From Candidatus Woesearchaeota archaeon CG_4_10_14_0_2_um_filter_33_13 (GTDB taxonomy: Archaea; Nanobdellota; Nanobdellia; Woesearchaeales; GW2011-AR9): a DNA stretch of 64,000 nt. The notes beneath the pieces were generated by a model that worked only from the letters and a program-made list of their open reading frames with translations, was not told where the DNA came from and did no database searches. Shown one piece after another: positions 1,196-49,607 of the stretch; the stretch's first letter is position 1, and every line of letters starts with the position of its first letter. Both the position numbers and the translations under genes were made by a program. The stretch lies in the NCBI GenBank assembly GCA_002792115.1, contig PFNQ01000013.1:7236-71235 (forward strand), written 5' to 3'.

Positions 1196-1228
1196 GCAGA
1201 TATTGTTCAGAGGAGTTGAATTACAAAA

Positions 1229-4828: not shown

Positions 4829-4921
4829 GTTTATTTATTACCAAGATACTTCGTTAAATCACGCCAACATCCTTTATAAATTTTGTTAAGTGAAGTTCTC
4901 CTAAAGTAATCCAAAAGATAA

Positions 4922-6211
4922 TTAACTATTAGATATTTGGATTATAAAATTAACTGCCGCGTTTAAGTCTGGGAACAAATAATCTGGTTTTCCATTAATG
5001 CATCCCTCTCCAGTCTTAACACCAACTGTTTTAATCCCTGCGTTTTTCCCACAACTTATATCTCTAAGAGAGTCTCCTACAAAAAATGATTTTTTGAAAT
5101 CAATGTTAAAATATTCTTTTGCTTTAAGCAAAAGTCCAATATCTGGTTTTCGGCAGTTACATCTTACTTTATAAGTTATATTCTCTCCTTGATAACCTTT
5201 GTCTGGGTGGTGAGGGCAGTAATATATTGCATCGAACTTTGCTCCATTTTGTCCAAGCATGCTTTCCATCTTTTTGTGGATTTCTTCTAGTTCCTTAATT
5301 GAGCAAAGTCCTCTTGCAACAACCGGTTGGTTTGTAATTAAGATTGCAAGTAATTCAGTGTGGTTAATTTTTCTAATGGCTTCAGATACTCCAGGAATCA
5401 ACTCAAATTCATTTATATCATAAATGTGATCTTTTTTAACATTAATAGTTCCATCTCTATCTATAAATATCGCCCCTCTTTTATTTTGAGCATTTAACCT
5501 TTTTATCTTTCCATTTTCCAAATCTTTTTTAACTTCATCAAATCTTTCTTTTGTACCCATATCTTTTAAATATTCAGCAGTATTATACCCATACACCAGT
5601 AAACTTTGTGGTAGGCGGGGGAAAATATCTTTACCAAAATCTTCTTTTTTTCCTTTTTTAATATGTTTAAATATCTCTGTAGAAAATATATATATTCCGG
5701 CGTTAACTAGATTGTTATAATATGTTTTATTTTGATGTGGTTTAGGATGAAATGCAATAATTCTTCCTTCTTCATTAACTTCTAAAAGGTCACTATCATG
5801 GGGGTGGTCGTTTGGGTGAATAACTAGTGTGCATTTACTTGATTTCTGGTTATGAAACTGTATCAACTTATTTATGTTTATATCAAACATAATATCTCCA
5901 TATAATACTAAGAAGTCTTCAACTAATTTATTTTCAATTTCTTTCAATCCACCAGTTGTTCCAAGGGGAATTGTTTCTGTATAATATTCAATATTAACTC
6001 CAAATTCTTTTCCATCTTTGAAGTATTCTTCAATTACATTAGATAAATGCCCAGTAATTAGGATAATCTCCGAGATTCCATACCTTTTAAGGATGTTTAT
6101 TTGGTGTTCTAATATTGGTTTACTCCCTATTTGTATCATTGGTTTTGGAATTTCTTTTGATATATCTCCCATTCGAGTACCTTTCCCACCTGCAATTATT
6201 ACTGCTTTCAT
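4922..6211 (-). CDS. Fusion of heptose-1-phosphate nucleotidyl(guanylyl)transferase (HddC-like) and D,D-heptose-1,7-bisphosphate phosphatase (GmhB, HAD-IIIA)
   Basis: The N-terminal part has MKAVIIAGGKGTRM..PKPM (NTP-transferase). The C-terminal part has AIFIDRDGTIN (DxDxT) plus the GmhB-type Zn loop YYCPHHP..CNCRKP and FVGDSLRD. Confidence 0.8.
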   Translation of the reverse strand: MKAVIIAGGKGTRMGDISKEIPKPMIQIGSKPILEHQINILKRYGISEIILITGHLSNVIEEYFKDGKEFGVNIEYYTETIPLGTTGGLKEIENKLVEDFLVLYGDIMFDININKLIQFHNQKSSKCTLVIHPNDHPHDSDLLEVNEEGRIIAFHPKPHQNKTYYNNLVNAGIYIFSTEIFKHIKKGKKEDFGKDIFPRLPQSLLVYGYNTAEYLKDMGTKERFDEVKKDLENGKIKRLNAQNKRGAIFIDRDGTINVKKDHIYDINEFELIPGVSEAIRKINHTELLAILITNQPVVARGLCSIKELEEIHKKMESMLGQNGAKFDAIYYCPHHPDKGYQGENITYKVRCNCRKPDIGLLLKAKEYFNIDFKKSFFVGDSLRDISCGKNAGIKTVGVKTGEGCINGKPDYLFPDLNAAVNFIIQISNS

Positions 6212-6244
6212 CTTCTCATAGTAAGAATTCTATTAAATACAATT

Positions 6245-7210
6245 TTATTTTTTCACAACCCATTGGTTTTCTTTGATCCATTTGATTGTTTTTTCTACAC
6301 ATTCCATTATGGAATATTTTGGAGCCCACCCCAAAGATTTTATTTTTAAAGTATCAAGATGAACAAAGGGGCTGTCTCCAATCCATCCTCTACTCCCACC
6401 AGTATATTGAAAAGAGACGTCTTTGAGAGATAGTACATCACAAATTTTTTTTGCAATTGTCTTTATTTCTACAAAATCATCATTCCCCAGGTTGTAAATG
6501 TTTATTTTTTCGTTTGATTTTTCAATGGATAAAAACATTGCATCTATTGCGTCAGTTACATACAAAAATGATTTCCTTTGTTTTCCATCTCCAAGAATTT
6601 CTAACTGGCGGGGGTTTTGTAATAGTTTTTTATAAAAATCAAATGCACACCCATGGCTGTACCTTTCTCCCATAAGCGAAACAAATCTGTATATATACAC
6701 ATTAAATCCATATCCATTAGCATAGGCTTCTAAGAGGCCCTCGCATGCAAATTTTGAAGCTCCATAAATAGATGTTTGAATTGGAGATGAAACATTTTCT
6801 GGTGTTGGAAACACGCTTGGTTCTCCATAGATGGCTCCTGATGAAGCAAAAGCAATGTTCTTCACTCCCCATCGTCTCATTGCTTCCAGAACATTGTTTG
6901 TTGCAATGGTATTTTGATTTAAACATTTTATTGGGTCTTTTAGATTATCTTTTATGTCCGCATTTGCCGCCATATGAAATACAAAATCAATGTTTTCCAT
7001 TGCTTTGTGTAATGCTTCTTTATCTAGAATATCTCCTTGAATGAGTTCTACTTTTTCTTTTAAATGATTCACAAATTCTTTTTTCCCAGTAGTAAGGTTA
7101 TCATAAATAATGACATTATTGTTTAGAGAAATTAAGCGTTCAACAATATGACTACCAATGAAACCAGCCCCACCTGTAACTAATACTCTTTTATTATTCA
7201 ACAAGATCAT
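6245..7210 (-). CDS. NAD-dependent sugar-nucleotide epimerase/dehydratase (extended SDR)
   Basis: VLVTGGAGFIGSH Rossmann motif and YGASK (YxxxK) catalytic motif. 321 aa. Confidence 0.85.
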   Translation of the reverse strand: MILLNNKRVLVTGGAGFIGSHIVERLISLNNNVIIYDNLTTGKKEFVNHLKEKVELIQGDILDKEALHKAMENIDFVFHMAANADIKDNLKDPIKCLNQNTIATNNVLEAMRRWGVKNIAFASSGAIYGEPSVFPTPENVSSPIQTSIYGASKFACEGLLEAYANGYGFNVYIYRFVSLMGERYSHGCAFDFYKKLLQNPRQLEILGDGKQRKSFLYVTDAIDAMFLSIEKSNEKINIYNLGNDDFVEIKTIAKKICDVLSLKDVSFQYTGGSRGWIGDSPFVHLDTLKIKSLGWAPKYSIMECVEKTIKWIKENQWVVKK

Positions 7211-7398
7211 TTGCTACACTCCTCCCATTTTGCAAAAAACGTATTATGATTATGTTCTAATTATTAGTTATAAATTTTATGTAGTTAAAGATCAGACTAT
7301 CAACTCAGGGATATTAAATTGCCAGGGATTAAAGATAATTTCTGAGTAATGAACCAATAAGTGCCTAATAGTTCTCTGTATTTTTATTAATATTATTC

Positions 7399-9061: not shown

Positions 9062-9197
9062 TTTTTAACTAATCTTGTAAACAGTTTATTTATTTTTCCA
9101 TATTCATTCTTCCTTTTAGGTATTCTTACTTATGAACTAGTAGTTTATACTCTAAACCACAGATAACCTTTTAAATCAGGAATAGTGGAGGAATTAA

Positions 9198-10358
9198 ATG
9201 ATTAGCATAGCTAAATATTTATCCGGGAAAGGTATAGACGTATCTAAGAAAAGCAGTCTTTCGGATGTTAAACATGTTTTCATCGTTCCCGATAATACCT
9301 ACAGAATAGTTGAAACAGAGTTAGATTTCATTTATAATGATGGTGTGATCAACCTTACTAAGTATTATCGCATATTATTAAAAGAATGGTTTTATGCGCT
9401 TAAAAAGGATGGAAAAATAATAATCAAGTTCATTGAATCAGATTGGTTTTCATCTGATTTTCTCAAAGAAGAAGTAGAACTCTTGTTTGGCGATAGCGTA
9501 TCGGTTATTTTTGAGAGAAAAGAGAATAAGAAAGATGGCGGGAGTTGTTTTTTGGTTCTTAATAAAAATATCTCTGGGCCGTATTATCCAGAAGGAATAA
9601 ATAATTGGTCTTTTGGAATAATTACCAATGGAAAGAAAATGGATGCCTTAGCTAAGATAATTGCATCTATTAGACACCAGAATATTCCTAATTATGAGAT
9701 TATTATTTGTGGAACTTATGGTGGTTTAATAGAAGAAGACACGAAATACATTCACTTTACAGAAAATGACCATCGGGGATGGATAACTAAAAAAAAAAAT
9801 TTGATTTGTGATAAAGCCAAATTTGAAAATTTGTTTGTTCTGCACGATAGGATTGTTCTTAATCCGGGATGGTTTGCAGGAATGAAAAAATACGGAAATA
9901 ACTTTGAAGTACTCTCTTGCAAAATAGATCATAAAACAATTAGGACTTATGATTGGATTACTTCTCGATACCCTTATAAAGATCCAAGAAGCCGACAATA
10001 TTTTGGTGGTTATTTAGAATATTCCGATTGGGACCAGTGGATTTACATTGATGGTGGGGCGATTATCCTAAAAAAAATAGTCTGGGAAAAAGTTAAATGG
10101 GATGAAAACCTATTTTGGAATGAAGCAGAAGATCTTAAGCTTAGTCATGATCAAACAGAGCACGGAATTTTAATTAGGTTCAATCCTTATTCAACGTGTG
10201 AATCATTAACCTGGAGACATCCATCAAGTAAACTTATTTTTAAAAAGAACAAAAAGAAACTTGGAAAACTAAGTGGTCCTTTTCATTATTTAATTGGAAA
10301 AAAGCTGCTTAATTATTCTGTCCTCGTGAAAAACAAGTTTAAAAATGAAAAATTATAA
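9198..10358 (+). CDS. Two-domain protein with a C-terminal GT-A-like (GT2-like) glycosyltransferase domain
   Basis: WSFGIITNGKKMDALAKIIASIRHQNIPNYEIIICG resembles the start of a GT-A domain. GGAGG lies upstream of the ATG. The N-terminal 130 aa are unassigned. Confidence 0.45.
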   Translation: MISIAKYLSGKGIDVSKKSSLSDVKHVFIVPDNTYRIVETELDFIYNDGVINLTKYYRILLKEWFYALKKDGKIIIKFIESDWFSSDFLKEEVELLFGDSVSVIFERKENKKDGGSCFLVLNKNISGPYYPEGINNWSFGIITNGKKMDALAKIIASIRHQNIPNYEIIICGTYGGLIEEDTKYIHFTENDHRGWITKKKNLICDKAKFENLFVLHDRIVLNPGWFAGMKKYGNNFEVLSCKIDHKTIRTYDWITSRYPYKDPRSRQYFGGYLEYSDWDQWIYIDGGAIILKKIVWEKVKWDENLFWNEAEDLKLSHDQTEHGILIRFNPYSTCESLTWRHPSSKLIFKKNKKKLGKLSGPFHYLIGKKLLNYSVLVKNKFKNEKL

Positions 10359-11856
10359 TACTGATGTGGTGTTAATTAACCTCAATGGACCATTACATAT
10401 GACTTCTAATTATTTGCATGCTCTATTGAAACGTGAGGGAATTTTAGTTAAAACTATTCACTTTAGAGAATATGAGCCTCGGAGCGAACCTCCTACAAAT
10501 AATGAATTAGAAATACTCTCAAATTTGATTAAAGAGATTAATCCTAAAATAATTAACATTTCTGTAAATTCAATGAATTACTTTGATGCTAAGGATATTA
10601 CTGAAAAAATAAGAGGGGAACTTGGCATCCCTTTTATTTGGGGGGGCCCCCATACCCTTGTAATGCCTGAAGAAAGTATTAAAATCGCAGATTTCATTTG
10701 TCGTGGTGAGGGCGATGTTTATTTCCCAGAACTAATTAAGAAATTTATTGCAGGTGAGGATTGCAGTAAAGTTCCGAACATTTGGATTAAGAGGGGCCTA
10801 GAAGTAATAAAAAACGAATTTGGGCCTCTAGTTAAAGATTTGGACATGCTTCCATTTCCGGATTACTCTGATGTGGATAAATATTATCTGATTGATTCTC
10901 GGATAAGCACAAAGTATGAAATTCCTTCTAGAAAGTATGTTTATCAACTAATGACTTCTCGAGGGTGTCCTTTCAGGTGTAGTTATTGTATGAATTCTCT
11001 TATATTTAACTTATTCCATAACAAATTTCTTCGTAAACGGGGAGTTAATTCAGTAATAGAAGAGTTAGTCCAAGTAAAAAAGATGCATCCAAAATTAAAA
11101 ACAATTTATTTTTGGGATGACGTGTTTGTAATGGATCTTCCTTGGTTAAAAGAATTTGCCAAAGTATATAAAGAAAAGATTAATATCCCATTTTTTTGCT
11201 ATTGCCACCCAATGTTTGTAAAAGATGAAACAATTAAAATTCTTAAATGGATGGGTGTTAAGATGATCTTTATTGGGATTGAGAGTGGTTCTCCGCGGGT
11301 TAGAAGAGAAATTTACGATCGTCACGAAACTAACGACAAAATAATTGAAGCAGCAACAATTATTAACAAACATAAAATTAAGGTTCATTATGACATCATC
11401 ACTTCAAAATTTGACACTCTAAAGGACTTTGACGTTGCATTACATCTGTTACTAAACTTGCCTAAACCGTTTCATATAAATCATAATAATTTGGCATATT
11501 ATCCGGGATTTAAAATTACGAATTTGGCCCTCCAAGAAAAAATAATATCAAAGCAGGAAGTTGCGGGGTATTCAAGAAAGATTAGAACACAATATGCAAC
11601 AAAAAATGAATTTGAGAATAATCCTGAATTGGCATATTATTACCTCATTGGGAGAAAATTCATCCCCAACCAGTTTATTTTTTGGTTGTACTCACATGAA
11701 TCTCATCTCAAACATAAGAGTTTATTTGGCCATATCCCTTCTTTGTTTGAAAGCTTTGATAATAATTTACATGCTCTAAATTTGATGTTTAAGCTGTTGT
11801 CATATGGGGAATTTAAATTTGTATTTTTTGAACTTAAGAAACGATTCTTTAAGTGA
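10345..11856 (+). CDS. B12-binding-domain radical SAM enzyme (class B)
   Basis: MTSRGCPFRCSYC (CxxxCxxC) preceded by an N-terminal B12-binding-like domain (WGGPHTLVMPEE; CRGEGDVYFPEL). 503 aa. Confidence 0.8.
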   Translation: MKNYNTDVVLINLNGPLHMTSNYLHALLKREGILVKTIHFREYEPRSEPPTNNELEILSNLIKEINPKIINISVNSMNYFDAKDITEKIRGELGIPFIWGGPHTLVMPEESIKIADFICRGEGDVYFPELIKKFIAGEDCSKVPNIWIKRGLEVIKNEFGPLVKDLDMLPFPDYSDVDKYYLIDSRISTKYEIPSRKYVYQLMTSRGCPFRCSYCMNSLIFNLFHNKFLRKRGVNSVIEELVQVKKMHPKLKTIYFWDDVFVMDLPWLKEFAKVYKEKINIPFFCYCHPMFVKDETIKILKWMGVKMIFIGIESGSPRVRREIYDRHETNDKIIEAATIINKHKIKVHYDIITSKFDTLKDFDVALHLLLNLPKPFHINHNNLAYYPGFKITNLALQEKIISKQEVAGYSRKIRTQYATKNEFENNPELAYYYLIGRKFIPNQFIFWLYSHESHLKHKSLFGHIPSLFESFDNNLHALNLMFKLLSYGEFKFVFFELKKRFFK

Positions 11857-11877
11857 GATACTTTAACATCTGTAAAA

Positions 11878-13500
11878 TTGTCAGAGATTCACAAACTTTA
11901 TATAAGCCCAGTTACACAGAATTTGTGGTGTACCCAAGTGATTCCTGATAACAAATATGTATTAGTTTTAAATTTAGGATTGAGGAGTATTAGAGCAATT
12001 GTTTTTGATCATACTGGTAAAAAGTTAACACATAGCTGGCTACCAGTAAGAACTTTTATTAAGGATGAGATGGTTGAACAAGATCCAAATGAGTGGTGGT
12101 CACTTGCCTTACGTGTAATTGACGAAGCTACTACTAGCCAAGAAATAAAAGATAATTTGGAATATATTACTGTTACAAGTTCATCTTGTAATCTGGTTCT
12201 TGTTGATGAAGATAAAAACTCGTTGGGTAATTCTTTAATGGTTTCTGACAAAAGGTCTTTAATACAGGCACAACAACTTTTTGAACATGAACCAATAAAA
12301 TATTTGTTTGATACACATAATATTCTTCCAGTTTCAAGTTTCTTAGCTCCAAAAATTCTTTGGATAAAAGATAAAGATCCAAATCGATTTTATCATACAA
12401 AACATTTTATTAGCTCTGATTCTTACCTTTTGATGAAACTAACTAATGGGATTATTGTTTCTGACCCTCTTAATGCTGAAAAAGCATTTTATTACATGCC
12501 TGAGAATAAATACCCTGCTCCATTATTAGAATATTTAGGTCTAACTGAAAAAAACTTTCCTCAAGTTAAGAATGTTGGAACAATTATTGGTAAAATTTCT
12601 CCTGAACTAAAAACTTTGTTTGCTTTTAACCAAAACGTTAGTGTGGTTCTTACAACTTATGATGCATTAGCTTCATTCTGGGGTTCGGGAGCACTAGAAG
12701 AAGGAGAAGCATGCATTGTTTGTGGAACGTGTTCTTCCATTAGAGTTTACTCTAAAGAAGGGCTAAAACAAAAAACTGCTGGATTATTATCTCAATATTT
12801 TGAAAATAAAAATGCTCATGTTGTTGGTGGATCAAATAATCTTGCAGGCGGTCTTTTAGAATGGGCTAAGGACGCATTTTATCAGGATGTTTATTCAGAT
12901 AATAATGACTATATCTTTGGTTTGATGGAGCAAGAAGCTAACACTAGTACTCTTGGAGCAAAAGGATTAATCTTTCTGCCATATCTTATTGGAGAAAGAA
13001 CCCCCTTCTTTGATTCTGAGGTTAGAGGTATGTTCTTTGGATTAGAAAGATCCCATAATAGAAAAGATATTATCAGATCAATCTACGAAGCCATTGGGTT
13101 TTTATCTTGGGATATTATCACATCTATGGAAAGAGGTGGGGTGTTAGTCAGAAATCTTCGCCTTTCTGGCGGCTTAGGAAAAAATGAGTTAATTTGTCAG
13201 ATTAAGGCTGATATTACTGGGAAAGAAGTTCATCTTTTGGATGAGGTTGAAACAACTGCTCTCGGATGTTTTATGCTTATTGCTTCTGCTTTAGGGGGTA
13301 ATGAAACACAGAAAGTTTTTCCCACAAATCTCTCTATCAGTAAAAGGTTCATTCCTAATTTAGATAACCATATCAAATATCAACAACTCTATCACCTTTT
13401 CAAAAAATTATACAAAGACAATAAAGAAAATTTTAAGTACAGAAATGAATTACTCAAAACAATTAATGAAAAGAGGAAATACGAAGTAAAAAACTTATAG
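11878..13500 (+). CDS. FGGY-family carbohydrate kinase (xylulokinase/glycerol-kinase-like, substrate unknown)
   Basis: 540 aa with FGGY architecture (LNLGLRSIRAIVFD..; VGGSNNLAGGLLEW; LPYLIGERTPF; RLSGGLGKNE). The track start is TTG, so the true start is uncertain. Confidence 0.75.
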   Translation: MSEIHKLYISPVTQNLWCTQVIPDNKYVLVLNLGLRSIRAIVFDHTGKKLTHSWLPVRTFIKDEMVEQDPNEWWSLALRVIDEATTSQEIKDNLEYITVTSSSCNLVLVDEDKNSLGNSLMVSDKRSLIQAQQLFEHEPIKYLFDTHNILPVSSFLAPKILWIKDKDPNRFYHTKHFISSDSYLLMKLTNGIIVSDPLNAEKAFYYMPENKYPAPLLEYLGLTEKNFPQVKNVGTIIGKISPELKTLFAFNQNVSVVLTTYDALASFWGSGALEEGEACIVCGTCSSIRVYSKEGLKQKTAGLLSQYFENKNAHVVGGSNNLAGGLLEWAKDAFYQDVYSDNNDYIFGLMEQEANTSTLGAKGLIFLPYLIGERTPFFDSEVRGMFFGLERSHNRKDIIRSIYEAIGFLSWDIITSMERGGVLVRNLRLSGGLGKNELICQIKADITGKEVHLLDEVETTALGCFMLIASALGGNETQKVFPTNLSISKRFIPNLDNHIKYQQLYHLFKKLYKDNKENFKYRNELLKTINEKRKYEVKNL

Positions 13501-13504
13501 AAAA

Positions 13505-14221
13505 ATGAAAGTATTAATCCCCCTCGCAGGACGTGGCTCACGCTTTATTGAAGCAGGTTATACCCTGCCAAAACCATTGGTTCTTATTATTAAAGAACCA
13601 ATGATTCGATGGGCAACTAAAAACCTTAACATTGAGGATAAAGATTTGATTTTTTTCATTCTCAAGATCCATATCGATAATTATCAATTAGATCAGAAAT
13701 TAAGAGAAATATTCTCCGCTAATATCAAAATTGTTGTTGTGGATAAAATTACCGAAGGGGCTCCAATAACTCTTCTTCAGGCAAAAGACATTATCGATAC
13801 CGAAGAAGAACTTTTAATATTTAATGGAGACCAGAACTTCAAAGAAAACATTATAGAAATGATTCGTAATCTTCCATTAAAGTATTCTGGGTTAATACCT
13901 GTGTTTCATTCAACACAAACAAAATTTAGTTACGCTCAAGTTGATAAGGGTATGGATGTTATAGAAGTGGCAGAAAAGATTCCAATTTCTAGTTATGCAA
14001 CTGCAGGAGTTTACTATTTCCGCCATGGAAAAGATTTTGTGTGGGCCACAGAACAAATGATATCTAAAGATATTAGAAGAGGGAATGAATTCTTTGTTTG
14101 TCCAGTATACAATGAATTGCTTGGACGCGGGGACAAAATAAAAGCCACCTTAATTGAAACTTTCTGGCCTTTAGGAACACCAGAAGATGTAGAACACTTT
14201 AAAAGGTATTATCATCCTTGA
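13505..14221 (+). CDS. Sugar-phosphate nucleotidyltransferase (GT-A fold), paralog 1
   Basis: MKVLIPLAGRGSRF..LPKPLV N-terminus. It shares AGVYYFRHGKDFVW..EFFVCPVYNELL..LGTPEDV with the ORF at 15478. Confidence 0.7.
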   Translation: MKVLIPLAGRGSRFIEAGYTLPKPLVLIIKEPMIRWATKNLNIEDKDLIFFILKIHIDNYQLDQKLREIFSANIKIVVVDKITEGAPITLLQAKDIIDTEEELLIFNGDQNFKENIIEMIRNLPLKYSGLIPVFHSTQTKFSYAQVDKGMDVIEVAEKIPISSYATAGVYYFRHGKDFVWATEQMISKDIRRGNEFFVCPVYNELLGRGDKIKATLIETFWPLGTPEDVEHFKRYYHP

Positions 14222-15047
14222 TGTGTTTATATAATTGTTTTAATTTATTGGGATAGTCAGTACAGATTCCATCAACATTCAATCTAATGAGGCGTTCCCA
14301 TACTTCTTCAAATCCTTCTTTTGATAGTGGGTGCTTAGGAATAGTATCTTTATGCAGTTCTGGTGAGATTGCGTAGACTAATTTGCCGTCATTATGGCAT
14401 TTATCAATAAACTCTTTGTTATATAATCCATGAACCCATTCATCTGCCCAGACAATTTCCCAACAATTCTCTTTAATGGCCTCTTGGTAGTTGTAGATTG
14501 TTGGATATCTTTTGTCCGGAAAGAGTATATTCTCTCCAATCGATAAAGATAGTTTAAGCTTAGGTTGGAGTTTTTGAAACTTTTTAGCAGAACTAATCAA
14601 AATGTCAAACACAAAAACACGTTTATAAATGTTAAAATCTGGAAAATCTTTTTCAAACTGGTCTAGTTCCTTAACTATCAATATTTCAATATCCTTTTCG
14701 GAACAATCTTTAACTTGAATTGCCAATTCAACCACAGGTAAGGATTTTGCTCTAAACAATTCTAATGTTTCTCTCAAGGAAGGAATTTTTCCAGTGTTAT
14801 TTACTCCAGTTGCTTTTATATAATTAATGCCAATTTTCTGAAGAGAATCAAAATTTATGTTAGTTATTTCTTTATCAATACTTGCTAGGCGTTTAAGATT
14901 AGAATCATGGATGACCACTAGTTTGCCATCTTTGGTACGGTGGATGTCAATCTCTAGACCAAACCCTTGTTCTAGGGCGTGTGTAAAAGATAAAATCGTA
15001 TTCTCTGGATAATTAAGCATTAATCCGCGATGAGCAAAAATTTTCAT
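14199..15047 (-). CDS. Glycerophosphodiester phosphodiesterase (GDPD family)
   Basis: MKIFAHRGL..YPENT..FGLEIDIHRTKDGKLVVIHD are classic GDPD motifs. Its 3' end overlaps the convergent neighbour by 23 nt. Confidence 0.8.
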   Translation of the reverse strand: MKIFAHRGLMLNYPENTILSFTHALEQGFGLEIDIHRTKDGKLVVIHDSNLKRLASIDKEITNINFDSLQKIGINYIKATGVNNTGKIPSLRETLELFRAKSLPVVELAIQVKDCSEKDIEILIVKELDQFEKDFPDFNIYKRVFVFDILISSAKKFQKLQPKLKLSLSIGENILFPDKRYPTIYNYQEAIKENCWEIVWADEWVHGLYNKEFIDKCHNDGKLVYAISPELHKDTIPKHPLSKEGFEEVWERLIRLNVDGICTDYPNKLKQLYKHIKDDNTF

Positions 15048-15151
15048 ACTACTCTCCTTATAACTGTTTTTTATATTTTTTTCGCAAGAGATATAACTTT
15101 AGGTCGCTTTTTTTCATAATTATTATAAATAAAAAGCGTAACCTTTGTTCC

Positions 15152-15481
15152 ATGGAAAGGCAAGATTTTAAGGAAATGACTAAAGGGTGGTTTGTTGGAG
15201 ATTTTGAGCCAAGTGCATTAAAGACAGATAAAGCGGAAGTAGCGGTTAAAAGATATAAAAAGGATGATTTTGAAGAAAAACATCATCATAAAGTTGCTAC
15301 GGAAATAACTTTAATTATCTCTGGAAAAGTTGAGATGAATAATCAGTGTTATCAAACCAATGATATTATTATAATTCTTCCTGGAGAAAGTACTAACTTT
15401 AAAGTTCTTGAAGACACTATTACCGTGGTCGTAAAAGTTCCATGTGTGAAAGGAGATAAATATTTAGGTGATGCAAAATGA
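15152..15481 (+). CDS. Small cupin-domain protein
   Basis: 109 aa with a His-rich cupin-like core (EEKHHHKVATEITLIISGKVEM). 4-nt overlap with the next gene. Confidence 0.55.
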   Translation: MERQDFKEMTKGWFVGDFEPSALKTDKAEVAVKRYKKDDFEEKHHHKVATEITLIISGKVEMNNQCYQTNDIIIILPGESTNFKVLEDTITVVVKVPCVKGDKYLGDAK

Positions 15482-16197
15482 AAATTGTTATGCCCATTGC
15501 GGGATTAGGTTCAAGATTTACTAAGGTGGGGATTGATACTCCAAAACCATTAATCAGTATTCTTAACAACCATATGGCAAAATGGTCTGCTAAATCCATT
15601 CCTTTTGCTAAACCGGAAGACTTTATTTTTATTCTCAGAAAAGAACATGTTAAATCTCATAATCTTGACAAGGAAATGCGGAAATTATTCCCCGAATGTA
15701 AAATCATTGAAATTGATTATGTTACTCAGGGAGCTGCATGTACTGTACTTTTAGCTAAAGAATTTATTAACAACGATGAACAACTAATAGTTACGGATTG
15801 TGACCATTTCTTTAGGAACACCCATTACAACTTTTTAGTAACTAGCAAGATTGATGACCTTAAAGGAATAATCCCTGTTTTTAAGGCTGATGGTGAGAAA
15901 TGGAGCTTTACAAAGTTTGATGAGAATAATGTAGTTTTACAAGTAGCAGAAAAGAAAAGGATTTCAGACTATGCTAATATTGGGGCGTACTATTTTCGAT
16001 ACGGGAAAGATTTCGTATGGGCTGCTGAAAAGATGATCAAAGAGAATAAACGGGTGAATAATGAATTTTATGTTGCTCCAGTTTATAATGAGTTGTTAGA
16101 AAGTGGCGCTAAGATTATGGCTGCCGTTTGTGACGAAGTATGGGGTTTGGGCACCCCAGAGGATGTTAAAATATTTGAAGAAAAGTTTATAAATTAA
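15478..16197 (+). CDS. Sugar-phosphate nucleotidyltransferase (GT-A fold), paralog 2
   Basis: MKIVMPIAGLGSRF..TPKPLI; IGAYYFRYGKDFVW..EFYVAPVYNELL..LGTPEDV. Roughly 35-40% identical by eye to the ORF at 13505. Confidence 0.7.
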   Translation: MKIVMPIAGLGSRFTKVGIDTPKPLISILNNHMAKWSAKSIPFAKPEDFIFILRKEHVKSHNLDKEMRKLFPECKIIEIDYVTQGAACTVLLAKEFINNDEQLIVTDCDHFFRNTHYNFLVTSKIDDLKGIIPVFKADGEKWSFTKFDENNVVLQVAEKKRISDYANIGAYYFRYGKDFVWAAEKMIKENKRVNNEFYVAPVYNELLESGAKIMAAVCDEVWGLGTPEDVKIFEEKFIN

Positions 16198-16793
16198 ATA
16201 GTAACAATTTTGGAAGTATGGTCTTTCGGATTGATTAAAACAGCATAAACCTCTTCATTAGAAGGATTATAAGCTATTATTTCTGGTTCAGAACAGTTTT
16301 CAAAATACCTTTTTGTATTACGCATTACTCCCAAATGTGAAATCACTAAAATTACATCTTTTTTGTTTCCTTTGATTAACTTCTTCAAGAAATTAGCAAC
16401 GCGGGGATAAATAATGGCATAACTTTCTCCAGCTAATCCTTCATACTCTCCGGGATGAACAAAATTATATTTGTCCTTGTTTCTTGTTTGCCAAAGATTA
16501 TCTGCCTTTAACAAAGATTTTTTATGACCTTCCCATGAACCATAACACATCTCTTTCAAATTATTAATAATTGTAACTGGAATGTTGGATTCTTTTGCAA
16601 TGACTTTCGTCGTCTCTATACACCGAGTAGCAGGACTAGAGAAGATTTGGATTACATTTATGGTCTTAGCTAGTTTTGCTAGTTTTTTTGCTTGTTCTAT
16701 TCCTTTTTTTGTTAATGGAGAATCTGATATCCCTTGTAATCTACCTTCACAATTATATTCAGTTTCTCCATGCCGTGCAAAAACAATTAACAT
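16194..16793 (-). CDS. Histidine phosphatase family protein (phosphoglycerate-mutase-like)
   Basis: N-terminal FARHGETEYN (RHG motif) and a later ISHLGVMR (His motif). 199 aa. Confidence 0.8.
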   Translation of the reverse strand: MLIVFARHGETEYNCEGRLQGISDSPLTKKGIEQAKKLAKLAKTINVIQIFSSPATRCIETTKVIAKESNIPVTIINNLKEMCYGSWEGHKKSLLKADNLWQTRNKDKYNFVHPGEYEGLAGESYAIIYPRVANFLKKLIKGNKKDVILVISHLGVMRNTKRYFENCSEPEIIAYNPSNEEVYAVLINPKDHTSKIVTI

Positions 16794-16865
16794 GTTTATC
16801 TTTTGGAAGGGGTTATTTATAAATTAATTGATATATCTAAGTATTATTTTATACTACTAAATAAA

Positions 16866-18146
16866 TTAATTCTTTTTTTTAAGTGCGTAATAAAAGTAAA
16901 CTATCCCCAAACTAGTACTTAACAAAGTAGCCAATACTGCTCCGGTGATATAATATTTTGGTATCAGGATAACATTGAAGAGTATGTTACTTGCTGTTTG
17001 TAATATCATCCCATAAAAATAGTTCTTTGTTTTTCTTAAGCTTGTTGCAGTGAGTAATGACATATAAACCATGTTTATTGAAAGTAATGTTGATGCTAGG
17101 CAGAAGATGATCCATGAATTAATTAAAAAGGGGTAATCATATATTTTAACAACAATAATGTATGTGATTGGCAGGAGCACCATAAAAGCAAGAGGGGTAG
17201 AAAATAGCAATAGCTTGTTTATTTTCTTAAAAGCAGATCCTTTTTCTTTAAACTGGGTTATTGTTGGGAATAAAACATTAATGAACACACCCGTGATGGT
17301 TGCAATAATTATAGTTGAAGCTAAGAAATAAGCTTGATACATCCCCACACTTTCAGTTCCGTAAAAATAATTTAACATTATCTTGTCAACGTTGGCCAAA
17401 ACTATTCCAGAAACTGAAGCAAAAATAATAAATTGATTATATTGACTAATTTTATTAAATACTTTCTGATTAAAGGTGATCTTTATTTTAGGGATAATGT
17501 ATTTAGTAGTCAAAAAGAAACTAATGATATGTATACTAAATAATGGAAGCAAGATCAAATAAATGCCTCTCCCTGTGAAATATAAATACACAAATGTAAT
17601 AAACAATACACTATGTGATATTATTTGTATTGTAGACAACTCTTTGAACTTTAACAATGTTTTGAGAAAGTTATCAGAATAACTAGATAATGCGACTAGT
17701 AATGCGTAAAAAATACTCAAAATAATTGTACTTATTTCTACTTTAAAAACAATGCTTAACAAACCTTTTATCAAAAATAAAATTATTCCAGAGAAAATAA
17801 AAATTACAAAGTAGGAAATGGTTATTGTTGAGAGTAATTCTGTCTTTTTAACTTGGCTTTCTTCTTCTTGATAAAATTTAGTTAAGGCATTTCCCCCAGA
17901 AAAGATAATTATTGGTAGGCATAATATTGTTCCAATAGATATAATCAAGTTAACTTTACCATATATTGCTGGACCCAAAACTCTGCCACCAATTGTTTGG
18001 ACCATAAATAGTAATCCTTTGGCAAAAAGTGTTGCCAGTAAAACAAGGCCAACATTCTTAAGAAAAGCTTTCTCGCCAGAGCTAATCTCATTATTAAATA
18101 TTTTCTGGTGCAATTTATATATTAAGTTAAGTAATAATCTTTTCAT
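16866..18146 (-). CDS. Oligosaccharide/polysaccharide flippase (Wzx / MOP superfamily)
   Basis: 426-aa polytopic membrane protein with about 12 hydrophobic segments, inside the glycan cluster. Confidence 0.65.
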   Translation of the reverse strand: MKRLLLNLIYKLHQKIFNNEISSGEKAFLKNVGLVLLATLFAKGLLFMVQTIGGRVLGPAIYGKVNLIISIGTILCLPIIIFSGGNALTKFYQEEESQVKKTELLSTITISYFVIFIFSGIILFLIKGLLSIVFKVEISTIILSIFYALLVALSSYSDNFLKTLLKFKELSTIQIISHSVLFITFVYLYFTGRGIYLILLPLFSIHIISFFLTTKYIIPKIKITFNQKVFNKISQYNQFIIFASVSGIVLANVDKIMLNYFYGTESVGMYQAYFLASTIIIATITGVFINVLFPTITQFKEKGSAFKKINKLLLFSTPLAFMVLLPITYIIVVKIYDYPFLINSWIIFCLASTLLSINMVYMSLLTATSLRKTKNYFYGMILQTASNILFNVILIPKYYITGAVLATLLSTSLGIVYFYYALKKKN

Positions 18147-18147
18147 T

Positions 18148-19290
18148 TTAACTCAATCTTTTATAAAATTCTAACGTTCTTTTCCAGCTAAATCTATTTT
18201 TGATACGTTCTTTAATTATTTTTGATGATTTTCTGAACAAATAATTATCTTTAATAAATTGTTTAATTCTAATCTTTATCACTTCTGGTTGATTTGGAGT
18301 AATTAAGTTAATGGTGTTTCCTTCCCCAACAATTTCTTTAGTTCCCCCCACATTCGTAGCAATAATCGGCAGACCCATAGCAGCAGCTTCTAACACAGAA
18401 GTGGGCATCCCTTCAGAGTAAGAAGGGTTGACAAAAATGTCAGTTATTGAAAGCGATTCTATTACTCCTTTTTGATCTTTGTTACCAACAAAAAGCGCAT
18501 TGACTCTTTGTTCTTTAGCTAAGTTCTCTAATTCTTTGCGATAAGGACCATCTCCAACAATCAAAAGAGTTACACCAGAAATACCTTTACAAGCTAAAAT
18601 TAGATCCTGTACTCCTTTAGCATAAATTAATCGTCCAACAAAAGTAATTATTTTGTTTTCTTTTGGAATTCCTAATTTCTGTCTTAAATCTGTTTTAACT
18701 TTTTTGTATTTTGTAACATCAATAGAATTAGGGATGTAAACCACTTTTTTTGGATTTGCTCCCATTTTAATGGCAAAATCACAGCAAGGTTTACTTATGC
18801 CAATAACTTTCCACGCCGATTTAAAGATTAACCTTCCTAAACTTTGATCATAAATCCACGCAATTAATTGTATTAATTTGTTATCATGTTTTACAAAAAC
18901 ATTACCATGTTCCGTATGTATTAGTTTAATTTTATTTTTCTTAGCAAACCACCATCCTAACAGTGTGCTTAAAAAGAACCTTGTTTGTGTGTTAATATAA
19001 TCATATTTCTGATCACCTAATTCTTTTAACATTCTTTTTGTTTGCTTGTTCCATCTAGGAATAGAATAAGTCTTCCCTAAAACACTTTTTGATGGAATGC
19101 GGTATATGTTAATGCCTTGATAGTTCTCATAAGAAGGAAGCCTACCATAATTAAAAGTTAGGACATCGGCTTGTATGCCCCTTTTAATAAGACCCGTGCT
19201 TAGATTTAGGACATAATTTTCTAATCCTCCAGCATAAGGATAAAAATTAGTGGTAAAGAACAGTATCTTCATTTTTCTCTCTTTTCTCAC
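18148..19290 (-). CDS. Glycosyltransferase GT4 (group 1)
   Basis: MKILFFTTNFYPYAGG..; SYSEGMPTSVLEAAAMGLPIIATNVGGTKEIV. The track start is GTG at 19290 (GTGA overlap with the upstream stop). ATG at 19272 (MKILFF) is an alternative. Confidence 0.85.
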   Translation of the reverse strand: MRKERKMKILFFTTNFYPYAGGLENYVLNLSTGLIKRGIQADVLTFNYGRLPSYENYQGINIYRIPSKSVLGKTYSIPRWNKQTKRMLKELGDQKYDYINTQTRFFLSTLLGWWFAKKNKIKLIHTEHGNVFVKHDNKLIQLIAWIYDQSLGRLIFKSAWKVIGISKPCCDFAIKMGANPKKVVYIPNSIDVTKYKKVKTDLRQKLGIPKENKIITFVGRLIYAKGVQDLILACKGISGVTLLIVGDGPYRKELENLAKEQRVNALFVGNKDQKGVIESLSITDIFVNPSYSEGMPTSVLEAAAMGLPIIATNVGGTKEIVGEGNTINLITPNQPEVIKIRIKQFIKDNYLFRKSSKIIKERIKNRFSWKRTLEFYKRLS

Positions 19291-19613
19291 TTTTTCTCTA
19301 AAGCAATTTTTCTAACCATATCTTCCATCTTTAGTTGTAATCTTTTAATATTTGTATAATTATAAAAAGATAGGGCAATCAAGAAAAGTATTCCTAACAC
19401 CGTCAATAAATCAATCGGACGAGACAAAGACATTTTCCTGATGAAATAGTCCAATGTGTATGAGAATAGAGTTAAAAGCATAAAACTTATCCAAACCAAA
19501 AACCACCCGATCATTTCCTTAACAGTAAATTCGTTTTTTCTAAATTTTAAGTACGTAACGTAAAGCATAAAGACACCAAATAAAATTCCTACAATTTGAA
19601 TTGTCGATACCAT
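19287..19613 (-). CDS. Small membrane protein, DUF2304-like (GT2-associated)
   Basis: 108 aa with 3-4 TM segments and an SRPIDLL motif. It sits directly downstream of a GT2, as is typical for DUF2304. Confidence 0.55.
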   Translation of the reverse strand: MVSTIQIVGILFGVFMLYVTYLKFRKNEFTVKEMIGWFLVWISFMLLTLFSYTLDYFIRKMSLSRPIDLLTVLGILFLIALSFYNYTNIKRLQLKMEDMVRKIALEKK

Positions 19614-19614
19614 C

Positions 19615-20271
19615 TTATCTTCTTAACCTCCACACCAGCATATTAAAAGCAATTGTTATTCCATCTAAGAAGGTTGTACCTTTATAATTGTCATGGTATA
19701 TCGTTTGAATGGGGATTTGGGTATATTTCAACTTTGATCTACCAAGATTGGCAATCATTTCTGTTTCTACAGAATAATCACTGGATTGCCATCTGATTAA
19801 CTTATAAGTGTGATCAGTAAATGCCCTGTACCCAGATTGTGTGTCATCTAATTTAATTTTAAACAACAATCTTGTCCAGATATTAAGAAACCAGTTGCCA
19901 AATTTTAATATTAATGGCATGTTTTTTGATCTTTTTCTAACACCAAAAACAAGGTCATAAGTTTCTAAGAGTTTGACGAATGTAGGGATCTCTGCGGGGT
20001 CATGTTGCCCATCAGAGTCCATGACAATAATCTTTTTAGCCCCACACTTTATTGCATAATCACAGCCAGTTTTTAAAGCAGAACCTTTGCCTAAGTTAAT
20101 GATATGTTGTAAAGAATGGACATTTGGAATGGTTTTGATTAATCTGGAAGTATTATCTGTGCTTCCATCATCAATTACAATAATATTTTGGGCATATTTC
20201 TTTGTTTCTTCTAAAGTAAAAACTATCCTTCTTTCTTCATTATAAGCAGGAATAACAATCCATTCATTCAT
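19615..20271 (-). CDS. GT2 glycosyltransferase, polyprenyl/dolichyl-phosphate sugar synthase-like
   Basis: VIPAYNEE, IDDGSTDNT and MDSDGQHDP motifs. 218 aa. TTTATAAA lies 23 nt upstream of the ATG. Confidence 0.8.
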   Translation of the reverse strand: MNEWIVIPAYNEERRIVFTLEETKKYAQNIIVIDDGSTDNTSRLIKTIPNVHSLQHIINLGKGSALKTGCDYAIKCGAKKIIVMDSDGQHDPAEIPTFVKLLETYDLVFGVRKRSKNMPLILKFGNWFLNIWTRLLFKIKLDDTQSGYRAFTDHTYKLIRWQSSDYSVETEMIANLGRSKLKYTQIPIQTIYHDNYKGTTFLDGITIAFNMLVWRLRR

Positions 20272-20293
20272 AGATCATAACTCAAAATATTGC

Positions 20294-20301
20294 TTTATAA
20301 A
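20294..20301 (-). promoter_or_regulatory. TATA box (TTTATAAA) for the GT2/DUF2304/GT4/flippase transcription unit
   Basis: Palindromic TTTATAAA 23 nt upstream of ATG 20271. Confidence 0.5.
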
Positions 20302-20356
20302 GATTATGAACTATAAAACCTCTCTGAAGTAAGAAGATAATAAAAAATAACGTTTC

Positions 20357-49606: not shown

Positions 49607-49607
49607 T

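Follow-up and report, generated by a model that had tools for sequence, protein, structure and literature searches.

A widespread gene cassette in an AglB N-glycosylation island of a Woesearchaeote with a proposed role in NDP-sugar synthesis and transfer

The window, i.e. the whole analysed stretch of 64,000 nt, is part of a MAG assigned to Candidatus Woesearchaeota (DPANN), a tiny archaeon with a symbiotic way of life. The eight genes under study are located inside its AglB N-glycosylation island (Table 1). All eight were recovered as consecutive ORFs with the coordinates and folds that had been predicted, using the ORF listing, Pfam and, for the two proteins without a Pfam match, structure. 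The start of the rSAM gene overlaps the end of the X386 gene by 14 nt and the two are translationally coupled, while the cupin gene and the start of NT2 have 4 nt in common. On the minus strand, HisP closes a run with the order AglB-GT2-DUF2304-GT4-Wzx-HisP. The remaining genes of this run encode the machinery for N-glycan assembly and transfer, which the module would feed.

Table 1. Genes of the module and their surroundings (positions within the window)
Feature	Position	Strand	Basis
X386, two-domain protein: methyltransferase-like + GT-A	9198..10358	+	No Pfam match, fold from structure
Class B (B12-binding) radical SAM enzyme (rSAM)	10345..11856	+	Pfam B12-binding + Radical_SAM
FGGY-family kinase	11878..13500	+	Pfam FGGY_N + FGGY_C
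Nucleotidyltransferase NT1, clade A	13505..14221	+	Pfam NTP_transferase, NJ tree
GDPD-family phosphodiesterase, cytoplasmic	14199..15047	-	Pfam GDPD, E 1e-25
Minimal 109-aa cupin	15152..15481	+	AF2 model; no Pfam match
Nucleotidyltransferase NT2, clade B	15478..16197	+	Pfam NTP_transferase, tree, gene context
HisP, histidine phosphatase branch 1, PhoE/CobC/PspA-like	16194..16793	-	Pfam His_Phos_1, E 4e-41
Context: Wzx-like flippase, GT4, DUF2304, GT2, 967-aa AglB/STT3 oligosaccharyltransferase	16866..23260	-	Pfam
Context: NDP-heptose-type set (GmhA-like SIS, HddA-like GHMP kinase, NT-GmhB fusion, SDR epimerase/dehydratase)	3247..7210	-	Pfam

The statement of the original prediction that these genes fit no nameable pathway holds true, as all NCBIfam equivalog scores for the eight genes are far below the cutoffs. 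None of the eight genes fits a curated equivalog model. The FGGY-family kinase, for instance, reaches 215 bits with XylB, 193 bits with GntK and 171 bits with GlpK, all below the cutoffs. The members of the neighbouring heptose-type set also score below their respective cutoffs (GmhA 97, HddA 163 and GmhB 160 bits).

A scattering of the genes in related genomes had been named as a possible refutation, and our search for it revealed the opposite, namely strong co-conservation. In other Woesearchaeota (L005, L007), X386, FGGY, two NTs, GDPD and HisP are encoded beside Wzx, GT4, DUF2304, GT2 and AglB, and in L005 this arrangement likewise comes after the module. The set of FGGY, two NTs, GDPD and HisP is also present in Falkowbacteria, Parcubacteria, Gammaproteobacteria and Methanosarcinales-binned MAGs, and in Dehalococcoidia it occurs with a HAD phosphatase replacing HisP. 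The gene order is common to other DPANN archaea, CPR bacteria, Dehalococcoidia and Gammaproteobacteria. Among the GTDB species representatives, the NT is encoded in at least 581 loci. A reduced core, which consists of NT, phosphatase and GDPD-like enzyme and may include the cupin, is carried by SAR11, Legionella and others, as well as by plasmids and Synechococcus phages (cyanophages). Within 5 kb of the NT, a phosphatase was found in 67 of 79 loci, a GDPD or mini-GDPD gene in 56, both in 51, a cupin in 17 and FGGY in 11. HisP occurs in 8/79 loci, and FGGY is present in all eight of them. Cultured Ruegeria carries the same module order (hyp211-HAD-NT-hyp106-NT-WavE-flippase-ligase), which is also found on plasmids of Azospirillum and Scandinavium. 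The genes for X386, WavE-like proteins and LicD are mutually exclusive (13, 14 and 8 loci, respectively).

Several parts of the cassette are moreover fused to each other. We identified HAD-NT fusions in 41 loci, which LicD adjoins in eight Legionella species, an NT-IMPase fusion (L001), an NT-RpiB fusion (P0236), a HisPhos-cupin fusion (P0449) and further fusions of the types cupin-NT, cupin-HAD, HAD-cupin and cupin-WavE. NT-APH-kinase fusions occur near the NT family in loci of Myxococcota, Planctomycetia and CPR (cluster 26). The natural fusions indicate that the parts belong to one pathway, and since the genes also recur together in many unrelated lineages, their clustering is far beyond chance. 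The predicted module for an activated donor within a glycan island is thus real with regard to synteny and fusions, and it represents a cassette, uncharacterized to date, that is present in hundreds of other microbial species.

In view of the co-conservation across archaea, bacteria and phage and of the domain fusions, it is very improbable that the eight genes are chance neighbours with unrelated housekeeping or catabolic functions, be it glycerophosphodiester and sugar catabolism or the assembly of the cobamide nucleotide loop. GDPD and the FGGY kinase could in principle pair for glycerophosphodiester/glycerol catabolism, and the cobamide version could rely on a B12 enzyme and on CobC as the best NCBIfam match of HisP. 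However, the CobC score is 109 bits versus a cutoff of 163 and all other curated scores are below the cutoffs as well, HisP tracks FGGY and not the rSAM, and CobS, CobT and CobU were not found in the window. In addition, the genes are always located among glycosyltransferases, flippases, ligases or AglB.

We therefore propose, with a probability of roughly one half, that the eight genes are a version of a horizontally mobile, widespread cassette that makes one (possibly two) NDP-sugars and decorates a surface glycan with the sugar. In the Woesearchaeote this glycan would be the AglB-dependent N-glycan. The cupin would isomerize a central or salvaged ketose or ketose phosphate, the FGGY kinase would phosphorylate the product, the histidine phosphatase would trim it to a sugar monophosphate and NT1/NT2 would couple the latter to an NMP. 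The resulting sugar would be transferred by X386, for which WavE-type or LicD-type transferases stand in elsewhere, and the B12-binding rSAM would be an optional tailoring enzyme, most likely methylating the donor or the installed residue. The folds, the co-conservation, the fusions, the paralogy of the NTs and the link to the N-glycosylation operon are shown by the data, whereas the sequence of the reactions, the class of substrate and the product itself are inferred. X386, the proposed transferase, consists of an N-terminal class I methyltransferase-like fold (~125 aa; GxGxG motif not obvious) and a C-terminal GT-A (GT2-like) glycosyltransferase domain of ~210 aa.

The AF2 model of the 109-aa protein (pLDDT 97) has a cupin fold, and structure comparison revealed an archaeal 112-aa phosphomannose isomerase (PDB 7zvy) as the nearest solved structure, at a sequence identity of only 17%. 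The two-His metal site is partly kept, since H44 and E51 are conserved but H46 is not universal. The protein is probably an aldose/ketose isomerase for a sugar or sugar phosphate, which is supported by the fusion of the isomerase RpiB to an NT mentioned above.

NT1 and NT2 are paralogues with a pairwise identity of 42%, and not 35-40% as had been predicted. In the neighbour-joining tree NT1 belongs to the FGGY-coupled clade A, and NT2 was assigned to the cupin-coupled clade B by tree and gene context. NT1 has conserved catalytic motifs and its best PDB match is a structure without assigned function (4evw), and the NCBIfam models for MurU, LicC and IPCT match the NTs only at E 1e-4 or weaker. 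The presence of two or three NT paralogues in one locus has no explanation in the proposed pathway and argues against it.

The FGGY-family kinase belongs to a distinct orthogroup. In an alignment of eleven orthologues the canonical first Asp is an invariant Asn ('NLGLRS'), and alignment to kinases in the PDB revealed an unusual substrate loop ('TSSSCN') that differs from that of glycerol kinase. Because the Asn replaces the canonical Mg-binding Asp, kinase activity of the orthogroup is not assured. The ORF has the predicted length of 540 aa, but it begins with TTG and the orthologues start ~25 codons further in, so the real protein probably comprises ~515 aa. The suggested pairing of kinase and nucleotidyltransferase is well founded, with the FGGY gene immediately preceding a clade-A NT gene in 8 of 11 loci. 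Phosphorylation by FGGY kinases is known for the primary hydroxyl groups of ketoses, polyols and aldonates and not for anomeric positions. On a strictly heptose-like route via a bisphosphate, FGGY would thus have to show an unprecedented activity, or else the phosphatase would have to work as a mutase. It also counts against the proposed pathway that a dedicated kinase is missing from most loci (SAR11, Legionella).

Such kinase-less loci, as well as the HAD-NT fusions, would be accounted for if the cupin isomerized a ketose-6-phosphate of central metabolism, a beta-PGM-like HAD or dPGM-like HisPhos mutase converted the product to the sugar-1-phosphate and the NT activated it, in parallel to the sequence F6P, M6P, M1P and GDP-mannose. 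FGGY would then merely supply free sugar where the metabolism of the organism is reduced. Among the NCBIfam families HAD indeed matches beta-phosphoglucomutase best, and beta-PGM is among its top PDB matches. We nevertheless regard this route as improbable: HAD scores below the beta-PGM cutoffs, HisP is short and nearest to PhoE (its closest PDB entries), PspA and CobC phosphatases and not to dPGM, the NT in L001 is fused to an IMPase-family phosphatase, a family without a known mutase, and GDPD would be left over. Both HisP and HAD are nearest to sugar-phosphate or broad-specificity phosphatases.

The GDPD enzyme possesses all catalytic motifs (HRG, PENT, ExD, HD and ICTDYP), which are retained from 282-aa down to 144-aa forms. 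It is an integral part of the cassette and, judged by its motifs, catalytically intact. A GDPD-like gene partners NT and phosphatase in free-living SAR11, in Ruegeria and in Cohnella, an Azospirillum plasmid carries the same combination, and in a cyanophage the gene beside HAD-NT is probably a further example. The enzyme is thus no scavenging device peculiar to DPANN archaea, and the idea that it scavenges host-lipid head groups is not specifically supported. The proposed pathway has the weakness that it gives GDPD no step, although this is among the most conserved partners.

GDPD would have a role in a teichoic-like route, in which the NT makes a CDP-polyol (CDP-glycerol-like) and a phospho-alcohol is put on the glycan, an idea that comes near to the original prediction. 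FGGY would phosphorylate the primary hydroxyl of a polyol or ketose, or GDPD would free glycerol-3-phosphate from glycerophosphodiesters, the phosphatase would be a pyrophosphatase pulling the NT reaction, and the transferase would be LicD in Legionella and possibly a GDPD-like enzyme elsewhere. This agrees with the generally known FGGY chemistry, the intact GDPD motifs, the resemblance of HAD to the pyrophosphatases PpaX and BT2127 and the fact that LicC, IPCT and MurU-type enzymes are small NTs with this fold (weak matches). LicD occupies the position of the SAR11 mini-GDPD directly upstream of HAD-NT and never occurs together with it, an exclusivity based on one genus, and in Legionella it suggests phospho-alcohol rather than glycosyl transfer, contrary to our proposal. 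However, 12 other loci share with the window a GT-A glycosyltransferase as the transferase, TagF, LicD and CDP-alcohol transferases were not found in the window with Pfam, and an alditol-making reductase is not present. Furthermore, the FGGY substrate loop is unlike that of glycerol kinase, GDPD plus HAD would be superfluous in SAR11-type bacteria, which already own glycerol-3-phosphate, and neither the isomerase (cupin/RpiB) nor the fusions of cupin and phosphatase would be accounted for. We consider this route possible but unlikely. Of the salvage routes originally suggested, the GT-A transferase of the window favours the one to an NDP-sugar over a CDP-alditol-phosphate donor, the replacement of GT-A by LicD in Legionella notwithstanding.

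The proposed isomerase-kinase-phosphatase-NT scheme may best be read as a non-orthologous analogue of NDP-heptose and UDP-arabinofuranose synthesis. Like the GDP/ADP-D-glycero-D-manno-heptose pathway (GmhA, HddA/HldE, GmhB, HddC/HldE), the cassette combines isomerase, kinase, phosphatase and a PF00483-type NT in one cluster and would supply a glycosyltransferase in a surface-glycan locus. In contrast to the SIS isomerase, GHMP kinase and HAD-IIIA phosphatase of that pathway, it contains a 109-aa cupin, FGGY and His_Phos_1 (elsewhere HAD-IA), and it has additional NT paralogues as well as a GDPD-like enzyme that is obligatory. The classical logic is itself represented next to the module by the heptose-type set (3247-6211), whose genes belong to different families. 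The phage UDP-D-arabinofuranose pathway comprises an arabinose-5-P isomerase, AfhE (NT+kinase) and the HAD phosphatase AfhF, and leads from sugar-5-P via the 1,5-bisphosphate and 1-P to the NDP-sugar with a small MurU/LicC-like NT (PMC13326640). The NT-APH-kinase fusions adjoining the cassette NT family resemble it, whereas the module in the window has neither SIS isomerase nor APH-type kinase, its phosphatase family differs, GDPD has no counterpart there and the cassette serves glycans, not DNA. The same four-activity logic would thus be realized here with isomerase, kinase and phosphatase from families unrelated to those of GmhA-HddA-GmhB-HddC and isomerase-AfhE-AfhF. A minimal cupin that is coupled to a sugar-1-P NT, and forms a fusion protein with it in other loci, is reminiscent of type II phosphomannose isomerase/GDP-mannose pyrophosphorylase, but the cassette lacks a PMM-family mutase and the classical two-His site is partial. 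MurNAc salvage (MupP, AmgK, MurU) and the Lic-1 phosphocholine pathway (LicA, LicC, LicD) likewise combine a kinase and a small PF00483 NT, the former together with a HAD phosphatase, and LicD beside HAD-NT in Legionella adds a further likeness to the latter. The kinase family differs from both, the window has no LicD and the NT model scores are weak.

The eight genes are not one indivisible unit, since the rSAM gene was not found in the closest syntenic loci L005, L007 and L022. It adjoins the gene for an X386 homologue in L090 and is separated from it only by the cupin gene in L002, so that, including the window, the rSAM is an accessory travelling with the GT-A protein. Its homologues are encoded within glycan clusters, frequently with more than one paralogue. 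Class B rSAM methylases whose substrates are nucleotide-activated compounds or glycans include Fom3 (cytidylyl-HEP), GenK and TokK. Unlike these, the window rSAM is near no subfamily cutoff (best NCBIfam match HpnJ, 96 bits versus 578), its sole PDB sequence match is TokK (E 2e-7), and it belongs to an uncharacterized subfamily. It shares with them the B12-binding domain and the CxxxCxxC core ('RGCPFRCSYC') and is encoded beside nucleotidyltransferase and transferase genes, and a role in C-methylation as a tailoring methylase is plausible.

An ORF listing placed all eight genes at the coordinates of the original prediction, and their products are identical to PIZ52021-PIZ52028 (COY27_01550-01585), which NCBI labels 'hypothetical protein' or 'glycosyl transferase family 2'. 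Pfam agreed with the families proposed from the sequence, namely the B12-binding radical SAM enzyme (rSAM; PF02310 with 38.1 bits at a cutoff of 32.1, PF04055 with 65.5 bits at a cutoff of 29.5), the FGGY kinase (FGGY_N of the PF00370/PF02782 family, 118.8 bits, cutoff 28.8; FGGY_C, 113.1 bits, cutoff 27), the two nucleotidyltransferases NT1 and NT2 (PF00483, 45.5 and 45.4 bits, cutoff 21.2), the glycerophosphodiesterase (GDPD; PF03009, 91.7 bits, cutoff 23.6) and the branch 1 histidine phosphatase (HisP; 141 bits, cutoff 21.7). The predicted cupin and the 386-aa predicted GT-A protein X386 have no Pfam or NCBIfam match and were resolved by structure prediction, X386 being modelled from 33 homologs with a pLDDT of 92.5. 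HisP carries the catalytic RHG motif ('ARHGETEYN', residues 6-14). The GDPD sequence contains the catalytic HRG, E-x-D and HD motifs, which are kept across the family series, and together with the Pfam score these motifs predict a member of the glycerophosphodiester phosphodiesterase family. The rSAM combines an N-terminal B12-binding domain with a radical SAM core in which the CxxxCxxC motif reads 'CPFRCSYC', so that its domain composition suggests a class B (cobalamin-dependent) enzyme.

The statement that these genes fit no nameable pathway is accurate for the databases, since the curated NCBIfam equivalog models stay well below their cutoffs for all eight proteins and none reaches it. A PDB sequence search with NT1, FGGY, rSAM, the cupin profile, HAD and HisP gave only generic relatives or structures of unknown function; the top match of the NT was 4evw, one of the latter. 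NT1 and NT2 share 42% identity and both keep the catalytic signature: G-x-G-(S/T)-R and the PKPL lysine are present, and G9, G11, S12, F14, P22 and K23 are (nearly) invariant across both paralogs. An assignment to RmlA, GalU, GlmU, MurU, HddC or IPCT was rejected, the highest score being 55 bits for rmlA_long (cutoff 320), with MurU and IPCT at about 21 bits. The FGGY protein is likewise no xylulokinase, gluconokinase or glycerol kinase equivalog (XylB 215 bits, cutoff 380; GntK 193 bits, cutoff 649; GlpK 164-171 bits, cutoffs 498-590).

The FGGY orthogroup (the window gene and L005, L007, L009, L011-L014, L016, L022 and L036) deviates from characterized FGGY kinases in the phosphate-1 loop. 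Whereas these have DxGT[TS] with the Mg-binding Asp, all 11 of 11 orthologs have an invariant 'NLGL(R/K)S' ('NLGLRS' in the comparison), with Asn in place of the Asp and no Thr/Ser pair. Two other elements are intact in the alignments, namely 'TYDA' with its catalytic-base Asp, and GG..KN. The substrate loop 'TSSSCN' is unique, as compared with RETT in GlpK and QMH in GntK/XylB. Its members may be ordinary ATP-dependent kinases, a function that is putative given the Asn at the Mg-binding position.

On the plus strand, X386, rSAM, FGGY and NT1 are closely packed, with a 14-nt overlap followed by gaps of 21 and 4 nt. The minus-strand GDPD gene lies between NT1 and the cupin gene, and cupin and NT2 overlap by 4 nt. 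HisP ends a minus-strand run AglB (967 aa)-GT2-DUF2304-GT4-Wzx-HisP, and an NDP-heptose-type set adjoins the module on the opposite side. The GC content of 0.31-0.33 over 8-18 kb resembles that of the window elsewhere, and a search for tRNA genes as a mark of foreign islands found none. There is accordingly no sign of a recently inserted foreign island; the AglB run on one side, the heptose-type set on the other and the even composition rather place the module inside an N-glycosylation island. The NCBIfam scores of the heptose-type set are all below the equivalog cutoffs, and its sugar may therefore differ from classical heptose. The module itself is not a member of the NDP-heptose-type pathways: SIS isomerase, GHMP/PfkB kinase and HAD-IIIA GmhB are missing among the eight genes and occur only in the neighbor cluster. 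It may, however, work in the manner of such pathways.

Positions of the features in the window and on the compared contigs
Feature	Sequence	Positions	Strand	Content
Eight-gene module	window	9198-16793		X386, rSAM, FGGY, NT1, GDPD, cupin, NT2, HisP
FGGY kinase gene	window	11878-13500	+	
NDP-heptose-type set	window	3247-7210	-	GmhA-like SIS, HddA-like GHMP kinase, 429-aa NT-GmhB fusion, SDR epimerase/dehydratase
Neighbor cluster with the heptose-type families	window	3247-6211		SIS isomerase, GHMP/PfkB kinase, HAD-IIIA GmhB
AMP phosphorylase group	window	32914-36856	+	YvcK-type CofD-related protein (318 bits, cutoff 196), HAD hydrolase, Arch_glmU-like sugar-1-P NT, AMP phosphorylase (569 bits, cutoff 535)
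Multidomain protein	window	38775-42119	-	1114 aa, lamin-tail, Nup98-type S59 autopeptidase and CARDB domains
Nucleoside phosphorylase group	window	47848-51068	-	purine/MTA nucleoside phosphorylase, PfkB-family kinase, S-adenosylhomocysteine hydrolase
Radical SAM array (L001)	ENA ERZ24794647 NODE_6293	66-17684		eight radical SAM genes, of which seven carry or resemble the B12-binding type
Tandem B12-rSAM genes (L004)	GCA_004196315.1 SDBT01002829.1	6032-10502		two B12-rSAM genes, two SAM methyltransferases
Phage S-CAM9 cluster (L092)	NC_031922.1	3691-7140		461-aa HAD-NT, flanking hypothetical proteins of ~217 and ~242 aa, second HAD

Scattering of the genes in related genomes would speak against a module; instead, the set recurs together from archaea to bacteria, which excludes chance adjacency. 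X386-FGGY-NT-NT-GDPD-HisP is found in the same order on two other Woesearchaeota contigs, where HisP is followed by GT4/DUF2304/GT2/AglB (L005) or a Wzx-type flippase (L007). With the window proteins as tblastn queries, we found FGGY, two NT, GDPD and HisP in a Falkowbacterium, a Parcubacterium, two Gammaproteobacteria and two MAGs binned as Methanosarcinales; in a Dehalococcoidia MAG a HAD phosphatase replaces HisP. One Methanosarcinales-binned MAG (L022) has the exact order of the window at 46-74% identity. The loci nearest to the window module, L022 and L036, share its gene order at up to 74% identity; their Methanosarcinales label indicates that either genes moved horizontally between DPANN archaea and their putative hosts or DPANN contigs were binned wrongly.

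With an NT profile as query, at least 581 loci were found in species-representative genomes, and 80 of these were taken. Clustering all flanking ORFs de novo at 79 loci anchored on the NT, and counting up to 5 kb from it, we recovered a phosphatase at 67, a GDPD-like protein at 56 and both at 51, next to two or more NT paralogs (20/79), a cupin (17/79) and the FGGY kinase (11/79). The window thus holds one version of a widespread cassette, whose carriers include DPANN and CPR symbionts, SAR11 and Legionella as well as plasmids and phages. The clearest view comes from isolates: Ruegeria sp. SCSIO 43209 has the order hyp211-HAD-NT-hyp106-NT-WavE-flippase-...-O-antigen ligase, plasmids of Azospirillum lipoferum 4B and Scandinavium goeteborgense are arranged similarly, and in Cohnella massiliensis the set lies within a flagellin glycosylation island. 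In Synechococcus myophages a HAD-NT fusion stands among glycosyltransferases; besides S-CAM9, the cyanomyophages S-PRM1, B3/B23 and Bellamy possess it, and the cluster seems to represent this cassette as an auxiliary gene set.

A neighbor-joining tree of 102 NT domains resolved three clades. Apart from L010, clade A (NT1 type) is confined to FGGY-containing loci, and in 8 of 11 of these FGGY is the gene immediately upstream of it; clade B (NT2 type) accompanies cupin, GDPD and a phosphatase; the members of clade C are fused to HAD or adjoin it. The window combines A and B, CPR bacteria often B and C. HisP was found only in loci with FGGY (8/8), from which HAD is absent with one exception. FGGY, HisP and NT-A on the one hand and HAD and NT-C on the other behave as alternatives, while GDPD, cupin, NT-B and the transferase are common to both.

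The HAD-NT fusion occurs at 41 loci, and in SAR11, Legionella and Flavobacteriia its β-PGM-like HAD domain is N-terminal to the NT. We also detected an NT-IMPase fusion (544 aa, in L001), a fusion of NT with an RpiB/LacAB isomerase (protein P0236) and, among cupin relatives (699 relatives; 1.84 billion representatives), the combinations cupin-NT, cupin-HAD, HAD-cupin, His_Phos_1-cupin and cupin-WavE. The HAD-NT, NT-IMPase and cupin-phosphatase fusions show that three unrelated phosphatase families fill one functional slot, and the fusions as a whole link cupin, phosphatase, NT and the WavE-type protein in one pathway. One way to connect these parts would be a mutase route resembling GDP-mannose synthesis, in which the cupin isomerizes the substrate, HAD or HisP acts as a mutase and the NT follows; we consider this improbable. 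In sequence, HisP is nearest to PhoE and HAD to TM_1254, which are sugar-phosphate or broad-specificity phosphatases.

The rSAM belongs to none of the named subfamilies HpnJ, HpnR, BchE, PhpK, TokK-like and Mmp10 (highest score HpnJ, 96 bits at a cutoff of 578). Its homologs (up to 66% identity) stand in glycan clusters, frequently as multiple paralogs. The unusually dense array of L001 lies beside the NT-IMPase fusion and a metallo-β-lactamase-fold protein. In L004 one of the tandem enzymes is 40% identical to the window protein, and the contig is virus-like, with dozens of ORFs of 45-130 aa and a 1142-aa Gly-rich protein. The rSAM is missing from the nearest syntenic loci L005, L007 and L022, whereas a paralogous gene directly follows the X386 homolog in L090 and a pair lies one gene after it in L002, with the cupin between. 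It is therefore an accessory tied to the GT-A protein and not a core component. Some class B radical SAM enzymes act on nucleotide-activated substrates, and by analogy a role as methylase is plausible. A reading of HisP as CobC, which would join it to the B12 enzyme in cobamide metabolism, was rejected because the score for TIGR03162 (109.5 bits) is below the cutoff of 162.9, the surrounding genes do not fit and HisP co-occurs with FGGY and not with the B12 enzyme. No cob genes, B12 transporter or other genes for cobalamin uptake or synthesis were found within the 64-kb window. The nucleoside phosphorylase group of the window recycles SAM by-products, which bears on the many enzymes of the island that depend on SAM.

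In SAR11 a 144-aa 'mini-GDPD' with conserved HRG, ExD, HD and ICxD motifs precedes the HAD-NT fusion. This unit stands among lepA, pheS and pheT, outside glycan islands, in many Pelagibacteraceae (L029, L031, L033, L035, L038-L040, L042, L044, L046 and L069), and a WavE-like gene comes next in some genomes and not in others. The idea that GDPD scavenges host lipids is unsupported, because free-living bacteria, and probably a cyanophage, have its gene beside the NT too. X386 (13 loci), the WavE-like protein (14 loci) and LicD (8 loci, Legionella) never co-occur. Compared profile to profile, X386 and the WavE-like proteins show no similarity (probability 0.2%) and are analogs at most. In the eight Legionella species (L037, L047, L053, L061, L062, L079, L080 and L084), the LicD-family phosphotransferase gene is directly upstream of HAD-NT, without a GDPD-like gene nearby, and thus holds the position of the mini-GDPD in SAR11. 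This position, together with the chemistry of FGGY kinases, would fit a phospho-alcohol route in which the cassette makes a CDP-polyol. We regard such a route as rather unlikely.

We favor the view that the cassette is a non-orthologous analog of the isomerase-kinase-phosphatase-NT logic of NDP-heptose and UDP-arabinofuranose synthesis. The activities at hand would be an isomerase-like cupin, a kinase, a phosphatase, an NT and a glycosyltransferase, and the final NDP-sugar would be used by X386. Both this match of activities and the nearest relatives of HisP and HAD argue for it. The NDP-heptose pathway employs the same activities and is encoded next door in the window by unrelated families. 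To our knowledge, no FGGY kinase phosphorylates anomeric hydroxyls, which is a problem for the favored model, as are the Asn at the Mg-binding position of all FGGY orthologs and their unique substrate loop. Further problems are that a dedicated kinase is absent from most loci, that the extra NT paralogs are left over and that the scheme offers no step to GDPD, which is among the most constant partners. The same activities as in the module make up the UDP-arabinofuranose pathway that was recently described in phages, with an isomerase, the kinase and NT AfhE and the HAD phosphatase AfhF (PMC13326640).

A bolder version, which we put forward tentatively, is that the cassette might make an activated sugar outside the known repertoire, for instance an NDP-ketose or NDP-pentofuranose, with the atypical FGGY kinase and with the GDPD-fold phosphodiesterase performing a reaction of a type new to nucleotide-sugar metabolism (e.g. 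the opening or formation of a sugar phosphodiester or cyclic phosphate, or phosphotransfer). The residue would then stand on surface glycans of SAR11, Legionella and possibly Campylobacter jejuni strains of HS1/8 and the HS4 complex, and would be manipulated by cyanophages. If so, its bearers would include microbes that rank among the most abundant or are of medical relevance.

The single proteins all fall into known superfamilies, and as a nucleotide-sugar biosynthesis module the cassette, too, is of a known kind. What we did not find described in the libraries or papers searched is the combination: an atypical FGGY, two or three paralogous small NTs, interchangeable HAD, histidine phosphatase and IMPase, a minimal cupin, an obligatory GDPD-fold enzyme and an unclassified GT-A or WavE transferase. 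A literature search for GDPD+NT+HAD modules and WavE returned nothing relevant, the gene name 'WavE' colliding with the word 'wave'. The ten-gene insertion CJSA_1353-1362 in the HS1/8 capsule locus of C. jejuni IA3902 consists entirely of genes of unknown function (PMC7901785, Table 4), among them a 212-aa unknown, a 219-aa HAD, a 241-aa 'glycosyl transferase', unknowns of 111 and 109 aa and a 619-aa 'dTDP-glucose pyrophosphorylase'; neither a product nor a second capsule was detected (PMC7901785). This insertion resembles the cassette by gene sizes and annotations and serves as a lead only.

The cassette lacks a curated annotation: NCBI names the NTs 'glycosyltransferase family 2 protein' and the GT-A protein, the cupin and the shorter GDPD-like forms 'hypothetical protein'. 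Nucleotide-sugar pathways set which building blocks a cell can show on its surface. Knowing the product would add a residue, and probably new FGGY, GDPD and cupin enzymology, to glycobiology and would set this widespread misannotation right. It would also account for a portion of the hypervariable surface-glycan regions of SAR11 and for an auxiliary gene of cyanophages, and would open a way to the N-glycan of uncultivated Woesearchaeota. Since cultivable carriers exist, the question is directly testable; this and its breadth make the cassette moderately interesting.

Two further loci of the window deserve mention. The product of AMP phosphorylase is ribose-1,5-bisphosphate, and the location of its gene beside a phosphatase and an NT invites the speculation of another route from a bisphosphate via a 1-phosphate to an NDP-sugar. 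The 1114-aa multidomain protein is probably a large surface protein and might undergo autoproteolysis through its S59 domain.
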